From sequence record NC_024124.2: 64,000 nt of DNA, one strand, 5' to 3'. Below the pieces are notes generated by a model. That model was not told where the DNA came from, did no database searches, and worked only from the letters and a program-made list of their open reading frames with translations. The translations under genes were made by a program, and so were the position numbers. Shown here in pieces: positions 5,564 through 63,605 of this stretch. Numbering within the stretch: the stretch's first letter is position 1; each line of letters starts with the position of its first letter. This DNA is from Escherichia phage vB_EcoM_JS09.

Positions 5564-6023
5564 AAACTATATCAAGGGCGATATTGTCGCCCTGTTTTCT
5601 AAAGGTAATAATATTGCTCATGGGTGTAATTGTTTTCATACAATGGGCGCCGGTGTAGCAGGCCAATTAGCAAAGGCTTATCCAAAAATTTTAGAAGCCG
5701 ATAAACTTCAAACCGAATTCGGAGACAAGTCTAAACTCGGGACTTATTCGGTTTATGAAAAATATTTTAAGACCCATAAAGCTTATTGCTTTAATCTTTA
5801 TACGCAGTTTGAGCCGGGACCTAATTTTGAGTACTATGCTTTAATGAATTGTATAATAGAATTAAATGAATTCGGAAAGAATAAGATAACAAAGCCTGTA
5901 ATTTATATGCCAAGAATTGGTGCAGGTATCGGTGGCGGAAACTGGGATGTCATCGAAGAGATTTTAGACACATATTCCACTAAACTAGAAATTGTGATTG
6001 TTGATTGGGAACCATTATTATGA
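5556..6023 (+). CDS. Macrodomain protein (TARG1/DarG-like ADP-ribose hydrolase fold); start uncertain
   Basis: HGCNCFHTMGAGVAGQL and MPRIGAGIGGGNWDVI resemble TARG1-type macrodomain motifs; ORF opens at TTG 5526, GTG 5556 chosen after SD gagga. Confidence 0.55.
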   Translation: MIKNYIKGDIVALFSKGNNIAHGCNCFHTMGAGVAGQLAKAYPKILEADKLQTEFGDKSKLGTYSVYEKYFKTHKAYCFNLYTQFEPGPNFEYYALMNCIIELNEFGKNKITKPVIYMPRIGAGIGGGNWDVIEEILDTYSTKLEIVIVDWEPLL

Positions 6024-35730: not shown

Positions 35731-36366
35731 ATGAAAACTACTCCTATTACTATCGCTATTGACGCAATCATAAAACAAGCTTCTTCTTTGGCCGCTATGG
35801 CCAAAGTAATTAGTCAAAACCCTGCTCGTTATAATGCTATTCTAGAAACTCTTCGACGCCCTGGACTTAGTAATTATGAAAGTCGTGTAATTATTACAGG
35901 TGTTGGTAAGAACGCTAATATCGCAACTAAAGCTTCTGAGACATTTGCTTCACTCGGTATCCCGAGTATGTACTTGAACACCGGGCATTATTCTCACGGT
36001 GATGCAGGATTCATTGCGCCTAATGATGTGTTGATTCATATTAGTCGTTCTGGTAAAACTGAAGAAATGATAGGCGTGGCTAAGCATCTTAAAACGATTC
36101 GTCCGAACGTCAAACAGATTCTGTTGCATTGTAACCCAGACATTCCACAAGAAAATGAAGCCCTTTTTGATTACTCTTTCTGTACAGGCATCGCAGTAGA
36201 GGTTGATGAGAATTCTCTGGCTCCGACCATGTCCACTACATTGTTGTTAGCGCTTATCGATACTTTTGCTATCAACCTTTCGTCTGAGCGTGGATTTACC
36301 TCTAATGACTTCCTTAAGTTCCACCCTGGCGGTGCACTAGGTGCCATGTTACGAGGCGAACAATGA
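35731..36366 (+). CDS. SIS-domain sugar-phosphate isomerase (arabinose-5-phosphate-isomerase-like, KdsD/GutQ-type)
   Basis: ITGVGKNANIATKASETFASLGIPS...HGDAGFIAPNDVLIHISRSGKTEE...LAPTMSTT...HPGGALGAM mirrors the KdsD/GutQ SIS domain; no CBS domains. Confidence 0.75.
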   Translation: MKTTPITIAIDAIIKQASSLAAMAKVISQNPARYNAILETLRRPGLSNYESRVIITGVGKNANIATKASETFASLGIPSMYLNTGHYSHGDAGFIAPNDVLIHISRSGKTEEMIGVAKHLKTIRPNVKQILLHCNPDIPQENEALFDYSFCTGIAVEVDENSLAPTMSTTLLLALIDTFAINLSSERGFTSNDFLKFHPGGALGAMLRGEQ

Positions 36367-36506
36367 AAGCAATAACAATAGGACTTTTACTATTGATGCT
36401 TGTCATGACTATCTACTGGAGCTTAACGGCTCCAGTAATGATTCCAACACTTGTAATCGGATGGATTATGATTGGACTACAAGCAAAGTATGAATGCTTT
36501 AACTAG
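36363..36506 (+). CDS. Small hydrophobic membrane peptide (47 aa)
   Basis: MKAITIGLLLLMLVMTIYWSL...TLVIGWIMIGL; ATGA overlap with SIS gene; T4 imm lies at this locus. Confidence 0.35.
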   Translation: MKAITIGLLLLMLVMTIYWSLTAPVMIPTLVIGWIMIGLQAKYECFN

Positions 36507-36547
36507 AATAGTGTACAATACTCCTACTTACTAATGAGGACCACAAC

Positions 36548-38233
36548 ATGAAAAAAGCTGTTATTCTTGGTGCTGGACTGGCAACTCGTTTGTATCCAAT
36601 AACGCATCATATTCCTAAGGTGCTTGTTAACTATAAACAAGACACTATTCTGAGCAATTTGTATACAATTTATTCTGACCTTGGTGCAGATGAAATTATT
36701 GTAGTAGTTCATTCAAAATTTGCTGAAACTGTTCGAGCTTATTGTGAGCAAGAAGGGTTCAATGTGACTATTCGTACAGTTGATGAAGCATATGGTTCTG
36801 CTTATGCTCTTGCTAAATTACACAAAGATTTAGACGGCCATAATGTAATTGTTAACTGGTGTGATATTATTCCTGATTTTGGTTCATGGTCTTGGAATGT
36901 TAACGCAATCTATGTTAAGGGTGACGAATGTCGATATAATTTCGACGGTGAAAATATCACTAACGTAGGTTCAACAGGTGGTAATGTTGTAGGAATTTAT
37001 CAGTTCAAAGACTGGGAATTCTATATGGGTTCTACTGATGAGGAAATTCATGAATACTGCAAAGGACGTGATTTCGTAGAATTCCTTTACGGCAGCGCAT
37101 TCAATAAATCAGAGCTTATGAATCTAATTGATTTAGGTGATATGCCTAAACTTGAAAAAGCTCATGAAGTTCGTGAACTTAATCGTAGTTTTAATGCAGT
37201 TGAAATTGGTGAAGAAACTGTAACTAAATTCGCATTAACCGAACAGGGCCGAGCTCTTCAGAAAGATGAGATTTCATGGTATCTTAAAGTGAAATCAGAT
37301 TCAGTTCCTCAGTTAGTTTCTGTTAATGAAAATAACTTTGAAATGGAACGCATTAAAGGTAAGCCGGCATTTGAATATATTAAATCCAAATCGAGTCTTG
37401 CTCGTCCACAAATTGTTGATGCAATTTTAGACGCACTGAAATTCAGCACAGACACTTATTTTGTAAGTCCTGAAACTGTTCGTCGTGATTTCACTAAAGA
37501 ATTCTATACGAAAGTTATTGATCGTTGTGAAAGCATTCAACCATTGATTGATTCATTTGGTAAAATCACACATGTGAACTACACTAAGATTGGACGTCTG
37601 AAGCCAATGTTGAAACAAGCTTTAGAACACCTTATTCGTTATCATAACCGTTCTCAGGGACAGTACTCTGTTATTCATGGCGACCCGAACTTCAGTAATA
37701 CTATGATTACTGATAATGGTGAAGTCAAGTTTATCGACCCTCGCGGATATTTTGGCGAAACCAAGATTTATGGGCCAAAATTGTATGATGAAGCTAAAGT
37801 GCTTTATGCTGTTTCAGGTTATGATGAATTCAACGCTAATCCGACCTGGGGACAGTTTACTATTGATGAAACAACTTGTAATGTGACTATTAACATCAAT
37901 CCATTAGTTTACAAATATGGAAAGATGAGTTCGTTTAACGAGTATCATCATTTGGCTGTAGCAATTATCTGGATTGCATTAGGTGGTTATTTCAAGAATA
38001 ATCCACTTAAAGCGGTAGCCGCATATTATAAAGGTATGGAACTTCTGACTAAGCAATTACGTAACATGGGCCGTGTACTTCAGGACGGCTCTATTAGTTA
38101 TGACGTAGCAGAACCTGTAACGGCTACTCTGATTACAAAAAATCCTGGTAAATGGGTACTAACTGATAAAGAAACTGGTGTTTCCTATCGTCCAATCGGT
38201 GGCGATATCACTCATCAATGGGAACGAATCTAA
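36548..38233 (+). CDS. Bifunctional sugar-1-phosphate nucleotidyltransferase / kinase-like protein
   Basis: N-terminus MKKAVILGAGLATRLYPITHHIPKVLV is NTP-transferase-like; C-terminus VIHGDPNFSNTMITDNGEVKFIDPRGYFG resembles the APH/choline-kinase catalytic loop. Confidence 0.65.
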   Translation: MKKAVILGAGLATRLYPITHHIPKVLVNYKQDTILSNLYTIYSDLGADEIIVVVHSKFAETVRAYCEQEGFNVTIRTVDEAYGSAYALAKLHKDLDGHNVIVNWCDIIPDFGSWSWNVNAIYVKGDECRYNFDGENITNVGSTGGNVVGIYQFKDWEFYMGSTDEEIHEYCKGRDFVEFLYGSAFNKSELMNLIDLGDMPKLEKAHEVRELNRSFNAVEIGEETVTKFALTEQGRALQKDEISWYLKVKSDSVPQLVSVNENNFEMERIKGKPAFEYIKSKSSLARPQIVDAILDALKFSTDTYFVSPETVRRDFTKEFYTKVIDRCESIQPLIDSFGKITHVNYTKIGRLKPMLKQALEHLIRYHNRSQGQYSVIHGDPNFSNTMITDNGEVKFIDPRGYFGETKIYGPKLYDEAKVLYAVSGYDEFNANPTWGQFTIDETTCNVTININPLVYKYGKMSSFNEYHHLAVAIIWIALGGYFKNNPLKAVAAYYKGMELLTKQLRNMGRVLQDGSISYDVAEPVTATLITKNPGKWVLTDKETGVSYRPIGGDITHQWERI

Positions 38234-38619
38234 TGCACCGTGTAGAAAACATGCTTAATCTTTGTTTTGATGTCGATGATTGTATAACAGAGTGGAATAA
38301 CAATCGTGATTACGTGAACTTCAAACCAGACGTCGAAATGGTGACTGCCATTAATGCCCTGTATGATGCAGGGCATACAATAACGCTTTACACTGCTCGC
38401 GGTATGAAGTCAGTCGGTCCTGGTCGTATAGCAATTGACATTCTCCCAAGTCTGATTCAGAACTTGGCAAACATTGGATTGAAGTACCATAATTTGCTAA
38501 CACATAAACCAGTATATGATTGGATTATCGACGACAAAGCTATGCGTCCTGACGAATTCAAAGCTCTTATGAATAAAGGCGAATTCGAAACATTTAAATC
38601 ATATAAACCGAATCTATAA
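38233..38619 (+). CDS. HAD-superfamily phosphatase
   Basis: Motif I LCFDVDDCIT, motif II TLYTARG, motif III K...IIDDKA; TAATG coupling to upstream gene. Confidence 0.6.
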   Translation: MHRVENMLNLCFDVDDCITEWNNNRDYVNFKPDVEMVTAINALYDAGHTITLYTARGMKSVGPGRIAIDILPSLIQNLANIGLKYHNLLTHKPVYDWIIDDKAMRPDEFKALMNKGEFETFKSYKPNL

Positions 38620-38673: not shown

Positions 38674-39834
38674 ATGAATACCTTTAAAATCGGAACGAAT
38701 TTTGATTTAGCTCTTCTTGATAAAATCGTAGAGCTCAATAAAACTTATCCTAATAGCTTGATAAACGAAGTATACGGCTCTACAAGAGAAATGGCTTTTG
38801 TAGCAGCCAGACCTGATTTTAGGCTTCCTGACGTTGACAAAAAGATGTTAGAAGATTACGTTAAACGTTGTAACGAATTAGGTATTTGCTTTAACTATAC
38901 ACTCAACACGATAAATCCTGGTTCAAAAAGAGAACTAGTTGAGTGGAAGAAGAAAGCTATTCAGGATTATGTTCAGTATCTTTGGTCAATAGGCGTATGG
39001 CGTATTACTATCGCTAACCCTGTTGTTATGGAAATTGTTCGTGAAGTCAATAAAGACATTGAGATTGAAGTTTCAACAATTCTACATGTCGATGCTGTAA
39101 CTCAAATCAAATACTTGCATGACCAGTATAATATCAAAAAGGTCTGCTGTGGAATTCATAAGAACCGTTCAGTTTCTTTCCTGAAGCGTGCAGCAGAGTT
39201 TTGCAATAAGAACAATATAATATTTGAAGTTCTTGTAAATGAGTTCTGTTCTAATGCTGGTAAAGGGTATACAACACATTGTAGCTATCGTGACTCTTGC
39301 TATATTTTCCATAGTACTGATGTTACAGCTGATGATGCTAAATCCTTAAACGGATATCCTATGCAGCACTGTATTAAAGCTCGTGATACAGACCCATTTA
39401 ACTGGTTGAGAACTCGTTTTGTTCGCCCCCAAGATTTGAAACTTTATAATGATATTGGTATCACTCAATTTAAAGTTTCGGGACGTACAGGTAGCACCGA
39501 CTACATTTTGAAAGTTCTTGAAGCTTATGCTTCTGAAAAGTTTGAAGGTAATTTGTTGGAATTGTGGAAGCCTTTAGAGACCATTTTCACTCTTGAAAAT
39601 GAGACAGAGTTTTCACATACAGTAAATATTGAAACCTCTTTGTTAGATGGCTTTTTAGAAAAAAGGTGGTTCAGACATCCAGATTTCGATTGTGCTAATG
39701 AAATCTGCGGGACGACGTGTACATATTGTGAAAGATATTATAAACGTCAATTATCTAAAAACGGGTTAGCAGAAAACTCTATATCTATTATTGATATAAC
39801 TAACTCTGATGACGCTTTGAGGTACCCGGAATGA
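38674..39834 (+). CDS. Peptidase-U32-family protein (UbiU/RlhA/TrhP-like putative Fe-S enzyme)
   Basis: N-terminus IGTNFDLALLDKIV...EVYGSTREMAFVAARPDF, NPVVMEIVREVNKDIEIEVST and Cys cluster EVLVNEFCSNAGKGYTTHCSYRDSCY parallel U32 hallmarks. Confidence 0.6.
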   Translation: MNTFKIGTNFDLALLDKIVELNKTYPNSLINEVYGSTREMAFVAARPDFRLPDVDKKMLEDYVKRCNELGICFNYTLNTINPGSKRELVEWKKKAIQDYVQYLWSIGVWRITIANPVVMEIVREVNKDIEIEVSTILHVDAVTQIKYLHDQYNIKKVCCGIHKNRSVSFLKRAAEFCNKNNIIFEVLVNEFCSNAGKGYTTHCSYRDSCYIFHSTDVTADDAKSLNGYPMQHCIKARDTDPFNWLRTRFVRPQDLKLYNDIGITQFKVSGRTGSTDYILKVLEAYASEKFEGNLLELWKPLETIFTLENETEFSHTVNIETSLLDGFLEKRWFRHPDFDCANEICGTTCTYCERYYKRQLSKNGLAENSISIIDITNSDDALRYPE

Positions 39835-39992
39835 TTTCTAGAAAAACTTTTAACCACCAACTTAACGAAGAGATTTTGACTATGAAACTGAACACTAATG
39901 AACAAATTCTTAAAAAGGCCCTGATGGGCCTGTTTGAAACTAAAGCGGCTAAAGTGATTAAAGAAACCTGTTCAATTGGAATACTACGCTGA
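39831..39992 (+). CDS. Small hypothetical protein (53 aa)
   Basis: ATGA overlap with U32 gene; not in track. Confidence 0.3.
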   Translation: MISRKTFNHQLNEEILTMKLNTNEQILKKALMGLFETKAAKVIKETCSIGILR

Positions 39993-40113: not shown

Positions 40114-40830
40114 ATGGGAAAACATAACACAATGAAATATATCAAAGCCGCAGATTTTCAAACCGCATTTAAAGCAGTCAATCGTGAAATTTTAGAAAAC
40201 CCGGAATTCGTAACTGATTCTCGTATTGGACGTTGTAATGAAATTGGGTCTATGACAGTAGTTGTTGACACTCCATCATCATTCAAAATGACCGACCCAC
40301 GTATTAACCGCATCTCTTATGAATATGCCGAAGACTTCTGGAAGTTTATGATTTCTGGTGGTACCAACGCAGAAGAAGCGTTTAAGGCATATCCTAATGT
40401 CGCTAAATTTATTTCTAAACCAAAATCAGATGTTTTGCCGGCGAACTTCAACACTTTCTATGGTCCTCGCATTGCGGCCCAATTACCAGCTCTTCTAAAA
40501 GAACTTAAAGAGAAGCCTAACTCCCGAAGAGTTGTGTTCCAAATTCTAGAAAGTTCTGATCAGGCTTTGCTTGATTCAGACGAAACGCTTGAATATCCAT
40601 GTACTGACTCAGTGACTTATTATATTCGTGATGGTAAGCTTTATACCCACTGTCATATGCGTTCTCAGAACTGTGCTGTTGTTATGCAGTTGGATTTTTA
40701 TCTCCAAGGAAAATTACTTCATTATATCGCTAACGAATGTGGTGTAGAAGTTGGTGATTATACTCATACCATGGTAAGTGCCCATGTGTTTGAACGTGAT
40801 TTTGATTATGTTAAAGGATTCCTTGACTAA
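40114..40830 (+). CDS. 42: Thymidylate-synthase-fold pyrimidine hydroxymethylase (dCMP hydroxymethylase-like, divergent)
   Basis: Active-site-like EYPCTD, SRRVVFQI and MRSQNCAVVMQLDF segments; occupies gene 42 position between 43 and uvsX. Confidence 0.65.
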   Translation: MGKHNTMKYIKAADFQTAFKAVNREILENPEFVTDSRIGRCNEIGSMTVVVDTPSSFKMTDPRINRISYEYAEDFWKFMISGGTNAEEAFKAYPNVAKFISKPKSDVLPANFNTFYGPRIAAQLPALLKELKEKPNSRRVVFQILESSDQALLDSDETLEYPCTDSVTYYIRDGKLYTHCHMRSQNCAVVMQLDFYLQGKLLHYIANECGVEVGDYTHTMVSAHVFERDFDYVKGFLD

Positions 40831-41729
40831 TGGCTATTTTCCGCGTACCTATTTTGAGTATGCGGTCTTATGAAACTGGACAGTATGCTATCCTTAAGGA
40901 TGGCAACTTCCAACTTCATTTGCACCGTGCTAATCCAGGTGATGTGATTACATATCCACGTAATGCATCTGATATTAAAGAATGCGAACGTCTTTTTCCG
41001 GAATTTAAGTTTGTTCCATTATGGTATAAAGATAACGCGTATAACACTCGTAAATATTTCTGGTCTGAAAATGAATTTGTGGTTGATTCATTAATTGCTT
41101 ATTATGATTGTGATTTTCTAATCACAGATATCACTGGATATGATGGCGCTTTTGACGTAGAATTCAATTTCAATATCACTGCAGACCCTAATAAACCACG
41201 TTTTTATATTGATGAATTCTTAAAAACCGACATGTTGTCTGTTAATCGTTCACTTCAAACTACTGTGTTGAATGAACGTCAAAAAGAAGTGCTGGTTAAC
41301 GCAGGTGCAGATGGTAATAAGATTATCGTAACACAGAAAGTTATACGTCCTTCCGTCATGCAGCGTCTTGTAGGTGATTTGGCTCCTATTCATCTAGATG
41401 GTATTTTTCATCCATTTCGAATTAGTGACCCATGCTATCGTTTTGAACAAGTGGTTGAATGCGCAATTCAATTAGGTCAACCGCTTTATATAACTGATCC
41501 AAATAATAGTTTCGACAGAAATAAGTATCCTGAAGAAGCGCTGATTCGAATTTTTAATCCAACTAAAACTGAGTACTATCAAATTCTTAAAGGACGTCCG
41601 AAGATTCAATATTTCGAAAATCCTGAAGAAGTATTCCATCCAGGTCTTGGTGAGTTCATCTACTTTAATGCTTTAATTTCTTCGCCGTATAATATACCTA
41701 AATACGAAGATGTCGTAATCGAGGAATAA
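40830..41729 (+). CDS. Hypothetical protein at the T4 beta-glucosyltransferase locus
   Basis: 299 aa; TAATG coupling to gene 42; no resemblance to recalled T4 beta-gt. Confidence 0.5.
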   Translation: MAIFRVPILSMRSYETGQYAILKDGNFQLHLHRANPGDVITYPRNASDIKECERLFPEFKFVPLWYKDNAYNTRKYFWSENEFVVDSLIAYYDCDFLITDITGYDGAFDVEFNFNITADPNKPRFYIDEFLKTDMLSVNRSLQTTVLNERQKEVLVNAGADGNKIIVTQKVIRPSVMQRLVGDLAPIHLDGIFHPFRISDPCYRFEQVVECAIQLGQPLYITDPNNSFDRNKYPEEALIRIFNPTKTEYYQILKGRPKIQYFENPEEVFHPGLGEFIYFNALISSPYNIPKYEDVVIEE

Positions 41730-41730
41730 A

Positions 41731-42279
41731 ATGGCTAAAATTATTTTAGTAGATGGCCCGGATAATGCCGGTAAAACAACTTTCATTAATGACATAATGG
41801 AAATTAGTGAAAGATATGTAAAGATTGATTTCCCTAAACGAACAGTTGATGGACGTTTCGATGTTAAGTCTCGAAATGAAGTTGGCTGTTTCGAAACGAT
41901 GTTGAATTATTTAGACCCTACTAAGATTTATCTGTTAGACCGTGGATATATTAGTAACTGGGTTTATGGACGTATTCGACAAGATGTGGACTCGGTTCTT
42001 GACGTTTATGAACAGGATTATGTTCGTCTTTGCCAAAACCATGATGTGTTCACAATTATTTTAACACGTAACGAAATGACTGAAAGTTTTGAAGACGACC
42101 TTATTACTTTGTCTTCATTCGGTTTTAATACAGTCATTTCATATTTTGAAGAGTTTGCAATTCATAACAAAATCCAAACGTATCAATTACTTAATCATGA
42201 CGGTGCTAACAAAGTTATAGGATTTAATGCAAGCGAACGTAATTATTTGATTACAGAAATTATCAAATGGGCTCGTTAA
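41731..42279 (+). CDS. P-loop kinase-like protein
   Basis: Walker A VDGPDNAGKTT at N-terminus, 182 aa, NMP/sugar-kinase-like size; SD gagga. Confidence 0.5.
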   Translation: MAKIILVDGPDNAGKTTFINDIMEISERYVKIDFPKRTVDGRFDVKSRNEVGCFETMLNYLDPTKIYLLDRGYISNWVYGRIRQDVDSVLDVYEQDYVRLCQNHDVFTIILTRNEMTESFEDDLITLSSFGFNTVISYFEEFAIHNKIQTYQLLNHDGANKVIGFNASERNYLITEIIKWAR

Positions 42280-42301
42280 GAGCCTGTTTAAAGTTTTTAA
42301 A

Positions 42302-60644: not shown

Positions 60645-62462
60645 ATGATTAAAAATGAAATTAAGGTATTGTCAGATGTAGAACATATTAAGAAACGTAG
60701 TGGCATGTATATTGGTTCTTCGGCCAAAGAAGCCCACGAGCGTTTTTTGTTTGGTAAATATCAACAAGTTGAATATGTTCCTGGTCTGGTTAAATTAATC
60801 GATGAGATTATTGACAACTCGGTTGATGAAGCTATTCGTACATCATTTAAGTTTGCAAATAAAATCGATGTGCAAATTAAAAATAATCAAGTTTCGGTGG
60901 AAGATAACGGACGTGGTATTCCTCAAGGTTTAGTTACCGACCAAACAGGTGAACAAATTCCTGGGCCTGTAGCGGCCTGGACTATTCCAAAGGCTGGTGG
61001 TAACTTTGGTGATGACTCTGAACGCAAGACTGGCGGTATGAACGGCGTCGGGAGTAGTTTAACTAATATCTTCTCTACGTTGTTTACAGGCATAACGTCA
61101 GATGGCGAAAATGAAATCACTGTTAACTGTTCAAACGGAATGGAAAACAAATCGTGGTCTTCTAAGAAATCTAAAGGTAAAGGCACTAAAGTAATCTTCA
61201 CTCCTGATTTCTCTTCATTTGAAGAGCATAATTTATCTCAAATTTATTTAGATATTACTTTAGACCGACTTCAAACATTGGCAGTCGTTTATCCTGATAT
61301 CAAGTTCACATTTAATGGTAAAAAGGTTGATGGTAATTTTAAACGATTTGCTAAACAATTTGGCGAAGATAGCATCATTCAAGAAAATGATAAAGTCTCT
61401 ATAGCATTCACAACATCACCGGACGGCTTCCGTCATTTAACTTATGTGAATAACATCCATACTAAAAATGGTGGTCATCATGTTGAATGTGTAATGGATG
61501 ATATCTGCGAACATCTTTTGCCGGGTATTAAAAAGAAATATAAGGGTATTGAAGTCACTAAAGCTCGTGTTAAAGAATGTCTCACAATGTTGATGTTTAT
61601 TAGAGACATGAGCAACATGCGTTTTGATTCTCAGACTAAAGAACGTTTAACGTCAACGTATGGCGATATTCGTAATCATATCCAATTAGATGCTAAGAAA
61701 ATTGCTCAGGCACTTCTTAAAAACGAAGCCTTGATTATGCCTATTGTTGAAGCAGCATTAGCTCGTAAATTGGCAGCAGAAAAGGCTGCAGAAACTAAAG
61801 CAGCTAAAAAGGCAACTAAAGCTAAGGTTCATAAGCATATTAAAGCTAACCAATGTGGTAAAGATGCAGATACGACATTGTTTTTAACAGAAGGTGATTC
61901 GGCAATTGGTTATCTCATTGATGTTCGTGACCGTGAACTACACGGTGGATTCCCATTACGTGGTAAGGTGATGAATAGCTGGGGTATGTCATATGCCGAT
62001 ATGATGAAGAACAAAGAGCTCTTCGATATCTGTGCTATCACAGGTCTTATTCTTGGTGAAAAGGCAGAGAATACGAACTATCGTAATATTGCAATTATGA
62101 CCGATGCCGATCATGACGGTCTTGGAAGTATCTATCCGGCTTTGCTTGCTTTCTTTAGTAATTGGCCTGAATTGTTTGAACAAGGACGTATTCGCTTTGT
62201 TAAAACGCCTGTAATTATTGCACAAATTGGCAAAACTCAAAAATGGTTTTATACTGTAGCTGAGTATGAAGAAGTTAAAGATACACTGCCTAAGCATAGT
62301 ATTCGATACATCAAGGGATTAGGCTCCCTTGAAAAGTCAGAATATCGTGAAATGATTCAGAACCCTGTGTACGACGTAGTTAAACTTCCTGAAAATTGGA
62401 AAGAACTCTTTGAAATGTTGATGGGTGATGATTCAGAACTTCGTAAAGAATGGATGTCCTAA
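60645..62462 (+). CDS. 39: Type II DNA topoisomerase large (ATPase) subunit, unsplit 39/60 form
   Basis: GHKL ATPase motifs EVIDNSVDE, GRGIP, GGMNGVG; 605 aa without interruption. Confidence 0.9.
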   Translation: MIKNEIKVLSDVEHIKKRSGMYIGSSAKEAHERFLFGKYQQVEYVPGLVKLIDEIIDNSVDEAIRTSFKFANKIDVQIKNNQVSVEDNGRGIPQGLVTDQTGEQIPGPVAAWTIPKAGGNFGDDSERKTGGMNGVGSSLTNIFSTLFTGITSDGENEITVNCSNGMENKSWSSKKSKGKGTKVIFTPDFSSFEEHNLSQIYLDITLDRLQTLAVVYPDIKFTFNGKKVDGNFKRFAKQFGEDSIIQENDKVSIAFTTSPDGFRHLTYVNNIHTKNGGHHVECVMDDICEHLLPGIKKKYKGIEVTKARVKECLTMLMFIRDMSNMRFDSQTKERLTSTYGDIRNHIQLDAKKIAQALLKNEALIMPIVEAALARKLAAEKAAETKAAKKATKAKVHKHIKANQCGKDADTTLFLTEGDSAIGYLIDVRDRELHGGFPLRGKVMNSWGMSYADMMKNKELFDICAITGLILGEKAENTNYRNIAIMTDADHDGLGSIYPALLAFFSNWPELFEQGRIRFVKTPVIIAQIGKTQKWFYTVAEYEEVKDTLPKHSIRYIKGLGSLEKSEYREMIQNPVYDVVKLPENWKELFEMLMGDDSELRKEWMS

Positions 62463-62504: not shown

Positions 62505-63605
62505 ATGAAAGTTATGTTTATCCCATCTCGTGCAGTCCCATTTAATCCTGACCGTGTACAAGGTGGTCTTGAAGCAGTACATTTAAATGTGTTGAAATAT
62601 CTTGTGTCCATCGGTGCTGATATTGATTATATCGGTTTTGATAATGACACATTTGGTGATTGGAAGGTTAATCATCATCCTGTTGGTCATCTGACTAAAT
62701 TCAGTCTAGGTATGAGTTATACTATGGCTCGTAAGATTGTTGAACTAGCCGGCATCCATGAATACGATTTTGTTGTTACTATGGAACCGACTAAACTAAC
62801 CGTTCAGGCAATTAAAGACGCAGGTCTCTCTAAAGTTCATAAGAATTTTATGGCAACACCATTTGAACCGGTATCTCGTGGCATTGTTCAAATTTGGGAC
62901 CAGACTATTCAAATTCATAAGAATGGTGGTAAGAGTTATGCTCCTACTAAAGCCTTCCGTGAATTTGAACGCAAATATTGTTATATGACTTCAGGTTTGA
63001 CTGACAAAATTGATTACGATTATTGGCGAGCAAATCCGTTGTTTGAAGCCGAAGATTATCCGGTTATTTGTTTGAATGAGAAACCTGAAGTTCTTCCGGC
63101 GACGGATCTGATTATTAGTGCACAACGTTATGACACTAAAATGCGTCGTACTGATGTTGCTCTTGAAGCGATTAAAGCACTAGGCGAAAATGGTGCAGGA
63201 TACTGTCCAAGCAAATGGGCGCCACCAGCTAAATATCCTGTTATTATTGATGCTCCACACAGTGAAATCATGGAACGTCTTAAAACAGCTAAAGCACTTA
63301 TTAATACGTGTCCTGACACAGGTACGGTAGAGAATAGTTCTATTGAAGCCATCTCTAAAGGTGTCCCTGTAATCCAGTTAGTTTTTAAGGATTATCCTCA
63401 TGCGACATTTGAATACGACCCAGATACTGTGCGTGTAGAAATTGATTCCTCTACTCCTAAGAAAGAAGTAGTTGCGCTTTACACAAAAGCTGTATTAGAA
63501 TTCACTGACACATACGAAGCTCGAGTTAAACGTGCTGAAGCAGTATGGAAGAAGTATAATCGAGATGCAGTTGTTGCGATGTGGGATAAAATCTTCACAG
63601 CGTAA
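62505..63605 (+). CDS. GT-B-fold glycosyltransferase-like protein (candidate DNA sugar transferase)
   Basis: N-terminal MKVMFIPS...GGLEAV and C-terminal TVENSSIEAISKGVPVIQL resemble GT-B donor-binding motifs; lies where T4 carries gene 60/mobA. Confidence 0.55.
   Translation: MKVMFIPSRAVPFNPDRVQGGLEAVHLNVLKYLVSIGADIDYIGFDNDTFGDWKVNHHPVGHLTKFSLGMSYTMARKIVELAGIHEYDFVVTMEPTKLTVQAIKDAGLSKVHKNFMATPFEPVSRGIVQIWDQTIQIHKNGGKSYAPTKAFREFERKYCYMTSGLTDKIDYDYWRANPLFEAEDYPVICLNEKPEVLPATDLIISAQRYDTKMRRTDVALEAIKALGENGAGYCPSKWAPPAKYPVIIDAPHSEIMERLKTAKALINTCPDTGTVENSSIEAISKGVPVIQLVFKDYPHATFEYDPDTVRVEIDSSTPKKEVVALYTKAVLEFTDTYEARVKRAEAVWKKYNRDAVVAMWDKIFTA

Follow-up and report, generated by a model that had tools for sequence, protein, structure and literature searches.

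A probable bifunctional kinase/nucleotidyltransferase of the UDP-D-arabinofuranose pathway in Escherichia phage vB_EcoM_JS09

A 64,000-nt stretch of Escherichia phage vB_EcoM_JS09 (NC_024124.2; hereafter the window, to which all positions refer unless another record is named) was analysed with respect to one gene, an ATG-to-TAA open reading frame (ORF) of 561 aa at 36548-38233 on the + strand, whose product begins with MKKAVILGAGLATRLYPITHHIPK. This product, termed the NT-kinase below, joins an N-terminal nucleotidyltransferase (NT) to a C-terminal kinase. Judged from sequence comparison, it is with a probability of roughly 85% the bifunctional kinase/nucleotidyltransferase of a phage pathway to uridine diphosphate (UDP)-D-arabinofuranose (UDP-Araf). 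The domain architecture, both folds, the conservation of catalytic residues, the orthology to gp52:53 of phage RB69 and the gene neighbourhood were determined here. The literature supplied the substrates, the order of the reactions and the product on the DNA, on the premise that a 99.6%-identical orthologue would act alike. The enzyme is already known, a function in UDP-arabinose synthesis having been described previously. An initial annotation, made from the sequence alone, had placed the ORF exactly and had read it as a sugar-1-phosphate nucleotidyltransferase fused to an APH/choline-kinase-like domain. That reading is essentially correct but missed the phosphatase step and the DNA-modification purpose.

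On sequence evidence the gene is not a chance ORF, because homologues are found in 375 phage records and an alignment of 42 sequences with identity down to 28% shows no variation at the catalytic residues of either half. A ribosome-binding site (GAGG, 36536-36539) is read 8 nt 5' of the gene. Protein identity to RB69 gp52:53 (ORF53_52c) was 99.6% overall (99.5% to RB69p053 over aa 1-218 and 99.7% to RB69p052 over aa 219-561), and the protein was 100% identical to its counterparts in phages DCP548, PHB12, ST0, AV113 and JQD51. By these identities it is the orthologue of RB69 gp52:53, in the group formed by RB69 gp52:53, DLP3 gp82 and HY126 AfhE. The same nucleotidyltransferase-then-kinase order is found in these proteins, and gp52:53 also has 561 aa. 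At the DNA level the gene differed from that of RB69 at 33 of 1686 nt, and the window phage is therefore a close relative of RB69 and not RB69 itself. In the genus Mosigvirus (RB69-like), 153 phage records matched the 6.6-kb interval between gp43 and uvsX, in which the gene lies, at 95-99% identity.

RB69 ORF053c and ORF052c had been recognized as one gene split by a sequencing error, with a single 63.9-kDa protein as the product of ORF53_52c, and UDP-arabinose synthesis was proposed as the possible role of this gene and of the SIS protein ORF055c (Thomas et al. 2018; PMC6024577). DNA alignment of the RB69 record (NC_004928.1, 28094-29780) placed one extra C relative to the window, which splits the gene. 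The intact 561-aa ORF was present in the window and in more than 140 other Mosigvirus records, and apart from this one-base error no difference of substance separates the RB69 and window versions.

RB69 DNA bears mono- and di-arabinosylated 5-hydroxycytosine, not hydroxymethylcytosine, and the thymidylate-synthase homologue gp48 was verified experimentally as a 5-hydroxy-dCMP synthase (Lee et al. 2026; PMC13326640). From structure predictions, the same authors assigned a nucleoside diphosphate (NDP)-arabinofuranose pathway to the gp55 isomerase, the C-terminal kinase of gp52:53, the gp51 HAD phosphatase and the N-terminal pyrophosphorylase of gp52:53. Purified DLP3 transferases extended RB69 DNA in vitro using UDP-Araf (PMC13326640). 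In the passages of that paper that cite He et al. 2026, AfhE of HY126 is given as a D-arabinose-5-phosphate 1-kinase/UDP-arabinose pyrophosphorylase, AfhF of HY126 as a Mg-dependent phosphatase acting on arabinose-1,5-bisphosphate, and AfhE is termed 'analogous' to RB69 gp52:53. The donor nucleotide and substrate, entered as unknown in the initial annotation, are reported for AfhE in these passages as UTP and D-arabinose-5-phosphate. A homologue in Shewanella phage Thanatos, TH1_060 (54% identical to the NT-kinase), is essential for propagation.

Public labels of the protein were hypothetical, 'bifunctional protein GlmU', 'mannose-1-phosphate guanyltransferase', 'nucleotide-sugar epimerase' and, in phage NRG-P0074, 'dCMP deaminase', and its PHROGs family (phrog_4098) is listed as function unknown. 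The protein is mislabelled or called hypothetical in over 370 phage records and in numerous bacterial 'genome' records. That it should itself be a pentose glycosyltransferase acting on cytosine, a GlmU or a dCMP deaminase is scarcely credible. CDD does place the N-terminus in the 'GT-A superfamily', a glycosyltransferase was proposed for TH1_060 and first suspected for RB69 ORF053c, and the annotations 'bifunctional protein GlmU' and 'dCMP deaminase' are in circulation; all three labels were rejected, as no domain or fold result supports them.

The protein was divided as follows.

36548-37162, + strand: N-terminal nucleotidyltransferase domain, aa 1-205, with invariant G10, R14, K24, G83, W104, D106, D195, G197, D198 and K201.
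37181-38068, + strand: APH/choline-kinase-fold kinase domain, aa 212-507, with invariant K227, E241, H377, G378, D379, N384, D397, P398, R399 and G400.
37676-37756, + strand: catalytic loop HGDPNFSN and Mg-binding loop IDPRG, conserved across homologues.
38069-38230, + strand: C-terminal beta-rich extension of about 54 aa, aa 508-561, beginning TKNPGKWVLTDKETGVSYRPIGG and ending in W, delimited by alignment and model.

PF00483 matched aa 3-99 of the protein at 39.1 bits (cut-off 21.2, E 8.5e-10) and was also matched by 32 of the 42 homologues; PF12804 scored 29.9 bits against a cut-off of 27. The nucleotide-binding loop reads G8-A-G10-L-A-T-R14-L15 and is followed by P23-K24, with G10, R14 and K24 invariant in the 42 sequences. 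The NTP-transferase loop expected initially is present, though as G-x-G-x-x-x-R-L and not literally as G-x-G-x-R-L; LicC has a comparable loop, 'AAGLGTRL'. Two acidic motifs, W104-x-D106 and D195-x-G197-D198, are invariant in the homologue alignment and, from their positions, may be the equivalents of RmlA D110 and D225 (Mg2+, sugar phosphate). The predicted structure of the N-terminal half is a Rossmann-like alpha/beta pyrophosphorylase fold and that of the kinase half a bilobal protein-kinase-like fold, in support of both domains as first proposed. The best PDB match of the nucleotidyltransferase domain, obtained with a 42-sequence profile, was HddC, the heptose-1-phosphate guanylyltransferase of the NDP-heptose pathway, and MurU was among its top structural matches.

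In the kinase half, HGDPNFSNTMITDNGEVKFIDPRGYFG (aa 377-403, nt 37676-37756) contains the catalytic loop H377-G-D379-P-N-F-S-N384 and the Mg-binding loop I396-D397-P-R-G. These are the APH/ChoK loops to which the initial annotation had pointed, and H377, G378, D379, N384 and D397 are invariant in the 42 sequences. K227 and E241, also invariant, lie in the N-lobe strand and helix of the model, and they may correspond to the ATP-anchoring Lys of APH enzymes and its partner Glu. A PDB sequence search, by plain phmmer and with the 42-sequence profile, matched the nucleotidyltransferase half only and not the kinase half. No curated Pfam or NCBIfam model spans the full two-domain architecture. The C-terminal extension was modelled as short strands with a pLDDT of 73-86. 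Within the alignment it occurs only in phage-type homologues of about 550-570 aa plus a few contigs of metagenome-assembled genomes, and it is absent from the aligned cellular-type homologues and from a second viral lineage described below. It is possibly a docking module.

T4-type replication genes flank the NT-kinase gene, with the gp45 clamp, the gp44/62 clamp loader, RegA and the gp43 polymerase upstream and UvsX, gp40 and gp41 downstream. The following genes accompany it.

35731-36366, + strand: SIS-domain D-arabinose-5-phosphate isomerase (RB69 gp55); PF01380 E 6.6e-11; phrog_5670; 99.5% identical to RB69p055.
36363-36506, + strand: very hydrophobic ORF of 47 aa, MKAITIGLLLLMLVMTIYWSLTAPVMIPTLVIGWIMIGLQAKYECFN, between isomerase and NT-kinase, its ATG overlapping the isomerase stop (ATGA).
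38233-38619, + strand: small HAD-type phosphatase (RB69 gp51, AfhF counterpart); capsule-biosynthesis phosphatase model TIGR01689 E 4e-13, below cut-off; 98.4% identical to RB69p051.
38674-39834, + strand: peptidase-U32-family protein (RB69 gp50); PF01136 E 7.3e-11; 99.5% identical to RB69p050.
39831-39992, + strand: small ORF of 53 aa overlapping the end of the U32 gene; the RB69p049/NRG-P0074 counterpart has 79 aa.
40114-40830, + strand: thymidylate-synthase homologue, 5-hydroxy-dCMP synthase (RB69 gp48); PF00303 E 2.3e-15; 99.2% identical to RB69p048; PMC13326640.
40830-41729, + strand: DNA arabinosyltransferase 1 (RB69 gp46:47); phrog_3891; glycosyltransferase in NRG-P0074; role from PMC13326640, Table 1.
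41731-42279, + strand: thymidylate-kinase-like nucleotide kinase (RB69 gp45); phrog_761; 97.8% identical to RB69p045.
62505-63605, + strand: second DNA arabinosyltransferase (RB69 ORF003c/gp3 orthologue); 99.7% identical to RB69p003 over 366 aa; PMC6024577, PMC13326640.

The cluster proteins were each 97.8-99.7% identical to their RB69 counterparts. The AfhE-type gene set is complete, the isomerase, HAD phosphatase, 5-hydroxy-dCMP synthase, arabinosyltransferase and nucleotide kinase lying between gp43 and uvsX, as they do around the NT-kinase in the RB69 gp52:53 group, with the gp3-type transferase in addition. The isomerase matched KpsF/GutQ/KdsD models at E 1e-32 to 6e-23, and arabinose-5-phosphate isomerase models scored best. 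The ATG of the HAD phosphatase gene overlaps the stop of the NT-kinase gene (TAATG), and its motif I is FDVDDCIT (DxDxT). When the thymidylate-synthase homologue was aligned to E. coli ThyA with MAFFT, a 2-residue gap left the D169 and N177 columns ambiguous; an ungapped reading (GKL...HMRSQN...LDF against GKL...YQRSCD...PFN) would give D169N and N177D, fitting the signature of Lee et al. Its identity as the 5-hydroxy-dCMP synthase is settled by the 99.2% orthology to RB69p048. The second arabinosyltransferase gene is separated from the main cluster by 24 kb and immediately follows the gene for the topoisomerase II large subunit (60645-62462); its product had no Pfam match.

The pathway proposed from these genes and from the literature would begin with host ribulose-5-phosphate, converted to D-arabinose-5-phosphate by the upstream SIS isomerase. 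The C-terminal APH-fold kinase would then use ATP to phosphorylate the anomeric C1 hydroxyl, giving arabinofuranose-1,5-bisphosphate, from which the translationally coupled downstream HAD phosphatase would remove the 5-phosphate to leave arabinose-1-phosphate. The N-terminal nucleotidyltransferase would convert arabinofuranose-1-phosphate and UTP to UDP-Araf and pyrophosphate, and the two arabinosyltransferases (40830-41729 and 62505-63605) would transfer Araf from UDP-Araf to 5-hydroxycytosine. For the latter, the thymidylate-synthase homologue (40114-40830) would provide 5-hydroxy-dCMP, which would enter the DNA at replication. Routing through the 5-phosphate may be what fixes the furanose form, because a pentose with a phosphate on O5 is unable to form the pyranose ring.

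Several points weigh against this assignment. The enzymology is second-hand, and the activity of AfhE would be transferred to the NT-kinase by orthology. Purified TH1_060 gave no product with xylose-1-phosphate and any NTP, which counts only weakly since the sugar was the wrong one. In the nucleotidyltransferase half, the family varies at the position that contacts the base (five residues before G83), and nucleotide specificity is therefore not callable from sequence. On the kinase side, PF01636 (APH) gave no match to the NT-kinase at E<=0.01, so that of the two domain searches suggested initially PF00483 alone held for the protein itself. Sub-threshold matches were seen to members of the clan, namely Fructosamin_kin (17.1 against a cut-off of 22.4), EcKL (16.2 against 22) and RIO1 (16.1 against 22). 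PF01636 was passed by 11 of the 42 homologues (best E 6.1e-10), and the family as a whole is therefore linked to APH; because the match on the NT-kinase was not significant, the kinase call rests on the homologues, the invariant motifs and the predicted structure.

The order of the steps could also be different. The HAD phosphatase might first free D-arabinose, the kinase phosphorylate C1 of the free sugar and the transferase make UDP-arabinose, the two domains acting consecutively. Known APH-fold anomeric sugar kinases such as AmgK and NahK take unphosphorylated sugars, and the structural matches mentioned above include MurU, which works with AmgK. A dephosphorylate-first scheme is moreover given for RB69 gp51 and the C-terminal domain of gp52:53 in Table 1 of Lee et al. 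2026 (PMC13326640), a further point against the bisphosphate route. In its text, which was updated after He et al., that paper has AfhE convert Araf5P to Araf1,5P and AfhF dephosphorylate the bisphosphate (PMC13326640, in the passages concerned). The sugar donor for the DNA is a furanose, but arabinose without its phosphate would go over to the pyranose at equilibrium. The bisphosphate route also has a precedent in the NDP-heptose pathway. Phosphatase action ahead of the kinase was accordingly considered improbable.

The sugar or nucleotide could likewise be another, the product being a CDP-, GDP- or dTDP-pentose or derived from ribulose or xylulose, with UDP-arabinose coming partly from elsewhere. 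The closest solved relatives of the nucleotidyltransferase domain use CTP (LicC), GTP (HddC, GMPP), dTTP (RmlA) or UTP (GalU, MurU), with no clear winner, and in cyanophage S-SRM01 the SIS/NT-kinase/HAD triad belongs to a large island of glycosyltransferase and epimerase genes, which suggests that the end products differ in other lineages. Arabinose, however, is the only sugar on the 5-hydroxycytosine of RB69 DNA, transferases of the cognate type accept UDP-Araf in vitro, and AfhE is reported, in the passages cited above, as a UDP-arabinose pyrophosphorylase. The adjacent isomerase, too, is best matched by arabinose-5-phosphate isomerase models. A different donor was for these reasons considered very improbable, and D-arabinose-5-phosphate and UTP were retained as the probable substrates of the NT-kinase.

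The NDP-heptose pathway (GmhA, HldE/HddA, GmhB, HldE/HddC) follows the same four-step logic of SIS isomerase, anomeric kinase, HAD phosphatase and nucleotidyltransferase. Its kinase, like that proposed here, acts on a sugar that keeps a terminal phosphate, later removed by the HAD enzyme, and in E. coli HldE kinase and nucleotidyltransferase are likewise fused. Homology is confined to the SIS, HAD and HddC-type nucleotidyltransferase components and does not extend to the kinase: the heptose kinases are ribokinase-like (HldE) or GHMP (HddA), in contrast to the APH/ChoK fold of the NT-kinase. The transferase domain of HldE is of the cytidylyltransferase class. The heptose is destined for lipopolysaccharide or capsule, whereas the pathway proposed here would handle a pentose, yield a UDP-linked product and have DNA as acceptor.

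AmgK (MurNAc anomeric kinase) and MurU (MurNAc-1-P uridylyltransferase) resemble the two halves of the NT-kinase in fold; they are separate proteins, AmgK takes a sugar that carries no phosphate yet, and the route does without a phosphatase. The Bacteroides FKP and Leishmania AFKP80 proteins are likewise fusions of an anomeric sugar kinase and a pyrophosphorylase, of the salvage type. They differ in having a GHMP kinase, in using GTP and a free pyranose sugar, and in serving eukaryotic or Bacteroides glycan metabolism; AFKP80 makes GDP-D-arabinopyranose. The LicA/LicC-type activation proposed initially, kinase and then nucleotidyltransferase, holds at the level of fold only. LicA and LicC are separate proteins that act on choline with CTP in consecutive steps, with no phosphatase and no SIS or HAD partners, whereas the NT-kinase activities would not be consecutive, the HAD phosphatase acting between them (PMC13326640, in the passages citing He et al. 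2026).

Gene neighbourhoods of the viral homologues were compared in eight T4-like viral contigs, one Dhakavirus, one Acinetobacter phage and cyanophage S-SRM01. A small HAD phosphatase gene lay 3' of the NT-kinase gene in all of them, and a SIS gene lay 5' in all except the Dhakavirus and one T4-like contig. Dhakavirus QL01 keeps the NT-kinase-HAD pair with no SIS gene adjoining; a 166-aa ORF 5' of its NT-kinase gene was considered as a SIS protein and rejected (BLASTP E 0.07). The genes around the SIS/NT-kinase/HAD core differ from one neighbourhood to the next, namely those for the thymidylate-synthase homologue, the transferases, the nucleotide kinase and U32.

The cellular survey used one genome per GTDB species. 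A relative was present at 84 loci, and among the best 80 of these, which were examined, the SIS gene adjoined on the same strand or was fused in 41. Single chains of about 890-955 aa with the order HAD-SIS-nucleotidyltransferase-kinase were found in metagenomes and in a slime-mould transcriptome (P0084, P0088, P0089, P0091, P0092, P0095, P0109). One such cluster comes from the Ceratiomyxa fruticulosa transcriptome, with five isoforms and possibly by contamination. Fusions of this kind are classic evidence for a shared pathway, here of isomerase, kinase, phosphatase and transferase. Together with the 41 of 80 loci, they support the initial suggestion that the neighbouring isomerase supplies the substrate of the enzyme. 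When the kinase half alone was used as the query of an exhaustive search, 450 clusters at 50% identity (E<=1e-10) were obtained across bacteria, archaea and viral metagenomes. Among the best 150 of these, 82 had NT-kinase size and layout, 15 were as long as the four-domain fusion and 12 were stand-alone kinases. Other relatives were fused to a cupin 'mannose-6-P isomerase-like' domain (about 780 aa).

In Synechococcus phage S-SRM01 (L107, NC_070963.1, 195088-197500) the SIS/NT-kinase/HAD triad, 26% identical, stands in an island of about 13 kb with two nucleotide-sugar epimerases, a methyltransferase and at least eight glycosyltransferases, and no thymidylate-synthase homologue nearby. This suggests a different, more complex glycan made from the same activated pentose. 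The GTDB contigs L002, L003, L005 and L006 ('bacterium', Candidatus Izemoplasma, Gastranaerophilaceae, Oscillospiraceae) carry phage genes, among them a full T4-like arabinosylation cluster, Tad3 anti-Thoeris and T4-type topoisomerase II subunits, and are probably phage contigs mis-binned into bacterial genomes.

To our knowledge, UDP-D-arabinofuranose is not a normal enterobacterial metabolite. With the NT-kinase and two small partners, the phage would be able to make it from a central pentose-phosphate intermediate. Every cytosine of the phage DNA would then carry one or two arabinoses, which block many restriction enzymes and CRISPR nucleases and shape type IV sensitivity. The NT-kinase core, usually SIS-adjoined or fused, is scattered through bacteria, archaea and viral metagenomes. 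This spread suggests that D-arabinofuranose, or a sugar closely related to it, is used in nucleotide-activated form for glycans of cell surfaces or of DNA more widely than is recognised.

Two candidate expression signals were found.

36495-36519, + strand: T4-type middle-promoter-like site, with the MotA box TGCTTTA at 36495-36501, a 12-bp spacer and the -10 sequence TACAAT at 36514-36519.
42265-42289, + strand: terminator-like hairpin of 10 pairs followed by a T-rich tail, at the cluster end before uvsX; a pattern match only.

The -10 end of the former lies 29 nt 5' of the NT-kinase ATG, and from what is known of T4 middle promoters the site may serve as one. The pattern TGCTTNA-N11-13-TANNNT occurred 18 times in the window against 3.7 expected (about 5-fold), a number reached in 0 of 100 shuffles, with 12 of the 18 sites on the coding (+) strand; examples are at 5837, 18988, 26291, 28984, 36495, 41669, 51587 and 60598. 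This enrichment is consistent with MotA/AsiA-type middle transcription in the window phage. A scan of the cluster for sigma-70-type promoters gave 21 sites against 25.7 expected, with no enrichment. The middle-promoter-like site and the terminator-like hairpin would fit co-expression of the cluster with the replication genes.

The U32-family protein (RB69 gp50) is listed by Lee et al. as a 'sugar or heterocycle reductase', without discussion (PMC13326640). A tentative alternative, which is rather doubtful at present, is that it may be an O2-independent, prephenate-dependent (d)cytidine C5-hydroxylase, and that SIS, NT-kinase and HAD form a portable cassette pairing with alternative cytosine hydroxylases. 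Characterised U32 enzymes are Fe-S-dependent, O2-independent hydroxylases linked to prephenate: RlhA makes 5-hydroxycytidine (ho5C) in 23S rRNA, TrhP makes 5-hydroxyuridine (ho5U) in tRNA, and UbiU/V, also of the U32 family, are those for which prephenate was shown to be the oxygen donor (PMC5727448, PMC6599085, PMC6747719, PMC10990095).

The RB69-like cassette is flanked by both the O2/flavin-dependent, thymidylate-synthase-like 5-hydroxy-dCMP synthase and the U32 gene. The U32 protein is unusually well conserved: it was present in 220 phage records, from phages of facultative anaerobes, and its identity nowhere fell below 82%, against an NT-kinase identity as low as 43% in part of these phages. 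The gene was missing from every one of the 57 records of Acinetobacter phages with an NT-kinase, and this distribution fits an O2-independent role. Nine cysteines, including a C-terminal CX4CX3CX2C cluster, were invariant in 14 viral sequences. A second, unrelated viral lineage, on contigs of up to 199 kb, has U32 relatives that are about 50% identical, in the order nucleotide kinase (phrog_761, seen in L096)-SIS-NT-kinase-(DAHP synthase/chorismate mutase)-HAD-U32. The DAHP-synthase/chorismate-mutase gene lies inside the cluster in five of these loci, and a thymidylate-synthase homologue was not detected within +-10 kb of the cassette. Chorismate mutase makes prephenate. PF00793 also covers KDO-8-P synthase, and DAHP synthase models score far better on this gene. 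The U32-related loci are L005 9827-10930, L006 8308-9453 and L092-L099.

Against a hydroxylase, the cysteine spacing differs from the canonical U32 motif, Dhakavirus coliphages are without the U32 gene, and the HAD protein of the second lineage is KdsC-like, so that a role in sugar chemistry is possible. Profile scores to RlhA, TrhP, UbiU and UbiV were weak, and a search of the PDB by sequence gave no match. In hhalign comparisons with E. coli TrhP and UbiU, the N-terminal barrel half alone aligned, with very low probability, and the Fe-S ligands were not alignable. Were the proposal true, gut phages could build arabinosyl-5-hydroxycytosine DNA without oxygen, and prephenate-dependent anaerobic hydroxylation would extend from RNA and quinones to DNA precursors.

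Further observations concern the small genes of the cluster. The 53-aa ORF at the end of the U32 gene may be a truncated version of the 79-aa RB69p049-type ORF. The 47-aa hydrophobic ORF looks like a small membrane protein; it is hypothetical in NRG-P0074, and RB69 has a shorter ORF054c annotated at that spot. The HAD phosphatase has been propagated as 'phosphoheptose isomerase' in public annotation (phrog_1238). In phage NRG-P0074, otherwise 98% identical, the NT-kinase and HAD genes are separated by a homing-endonuclease gene, whose insertion site is precisely the TAATG junction seen in the window (L001 4019-5120).

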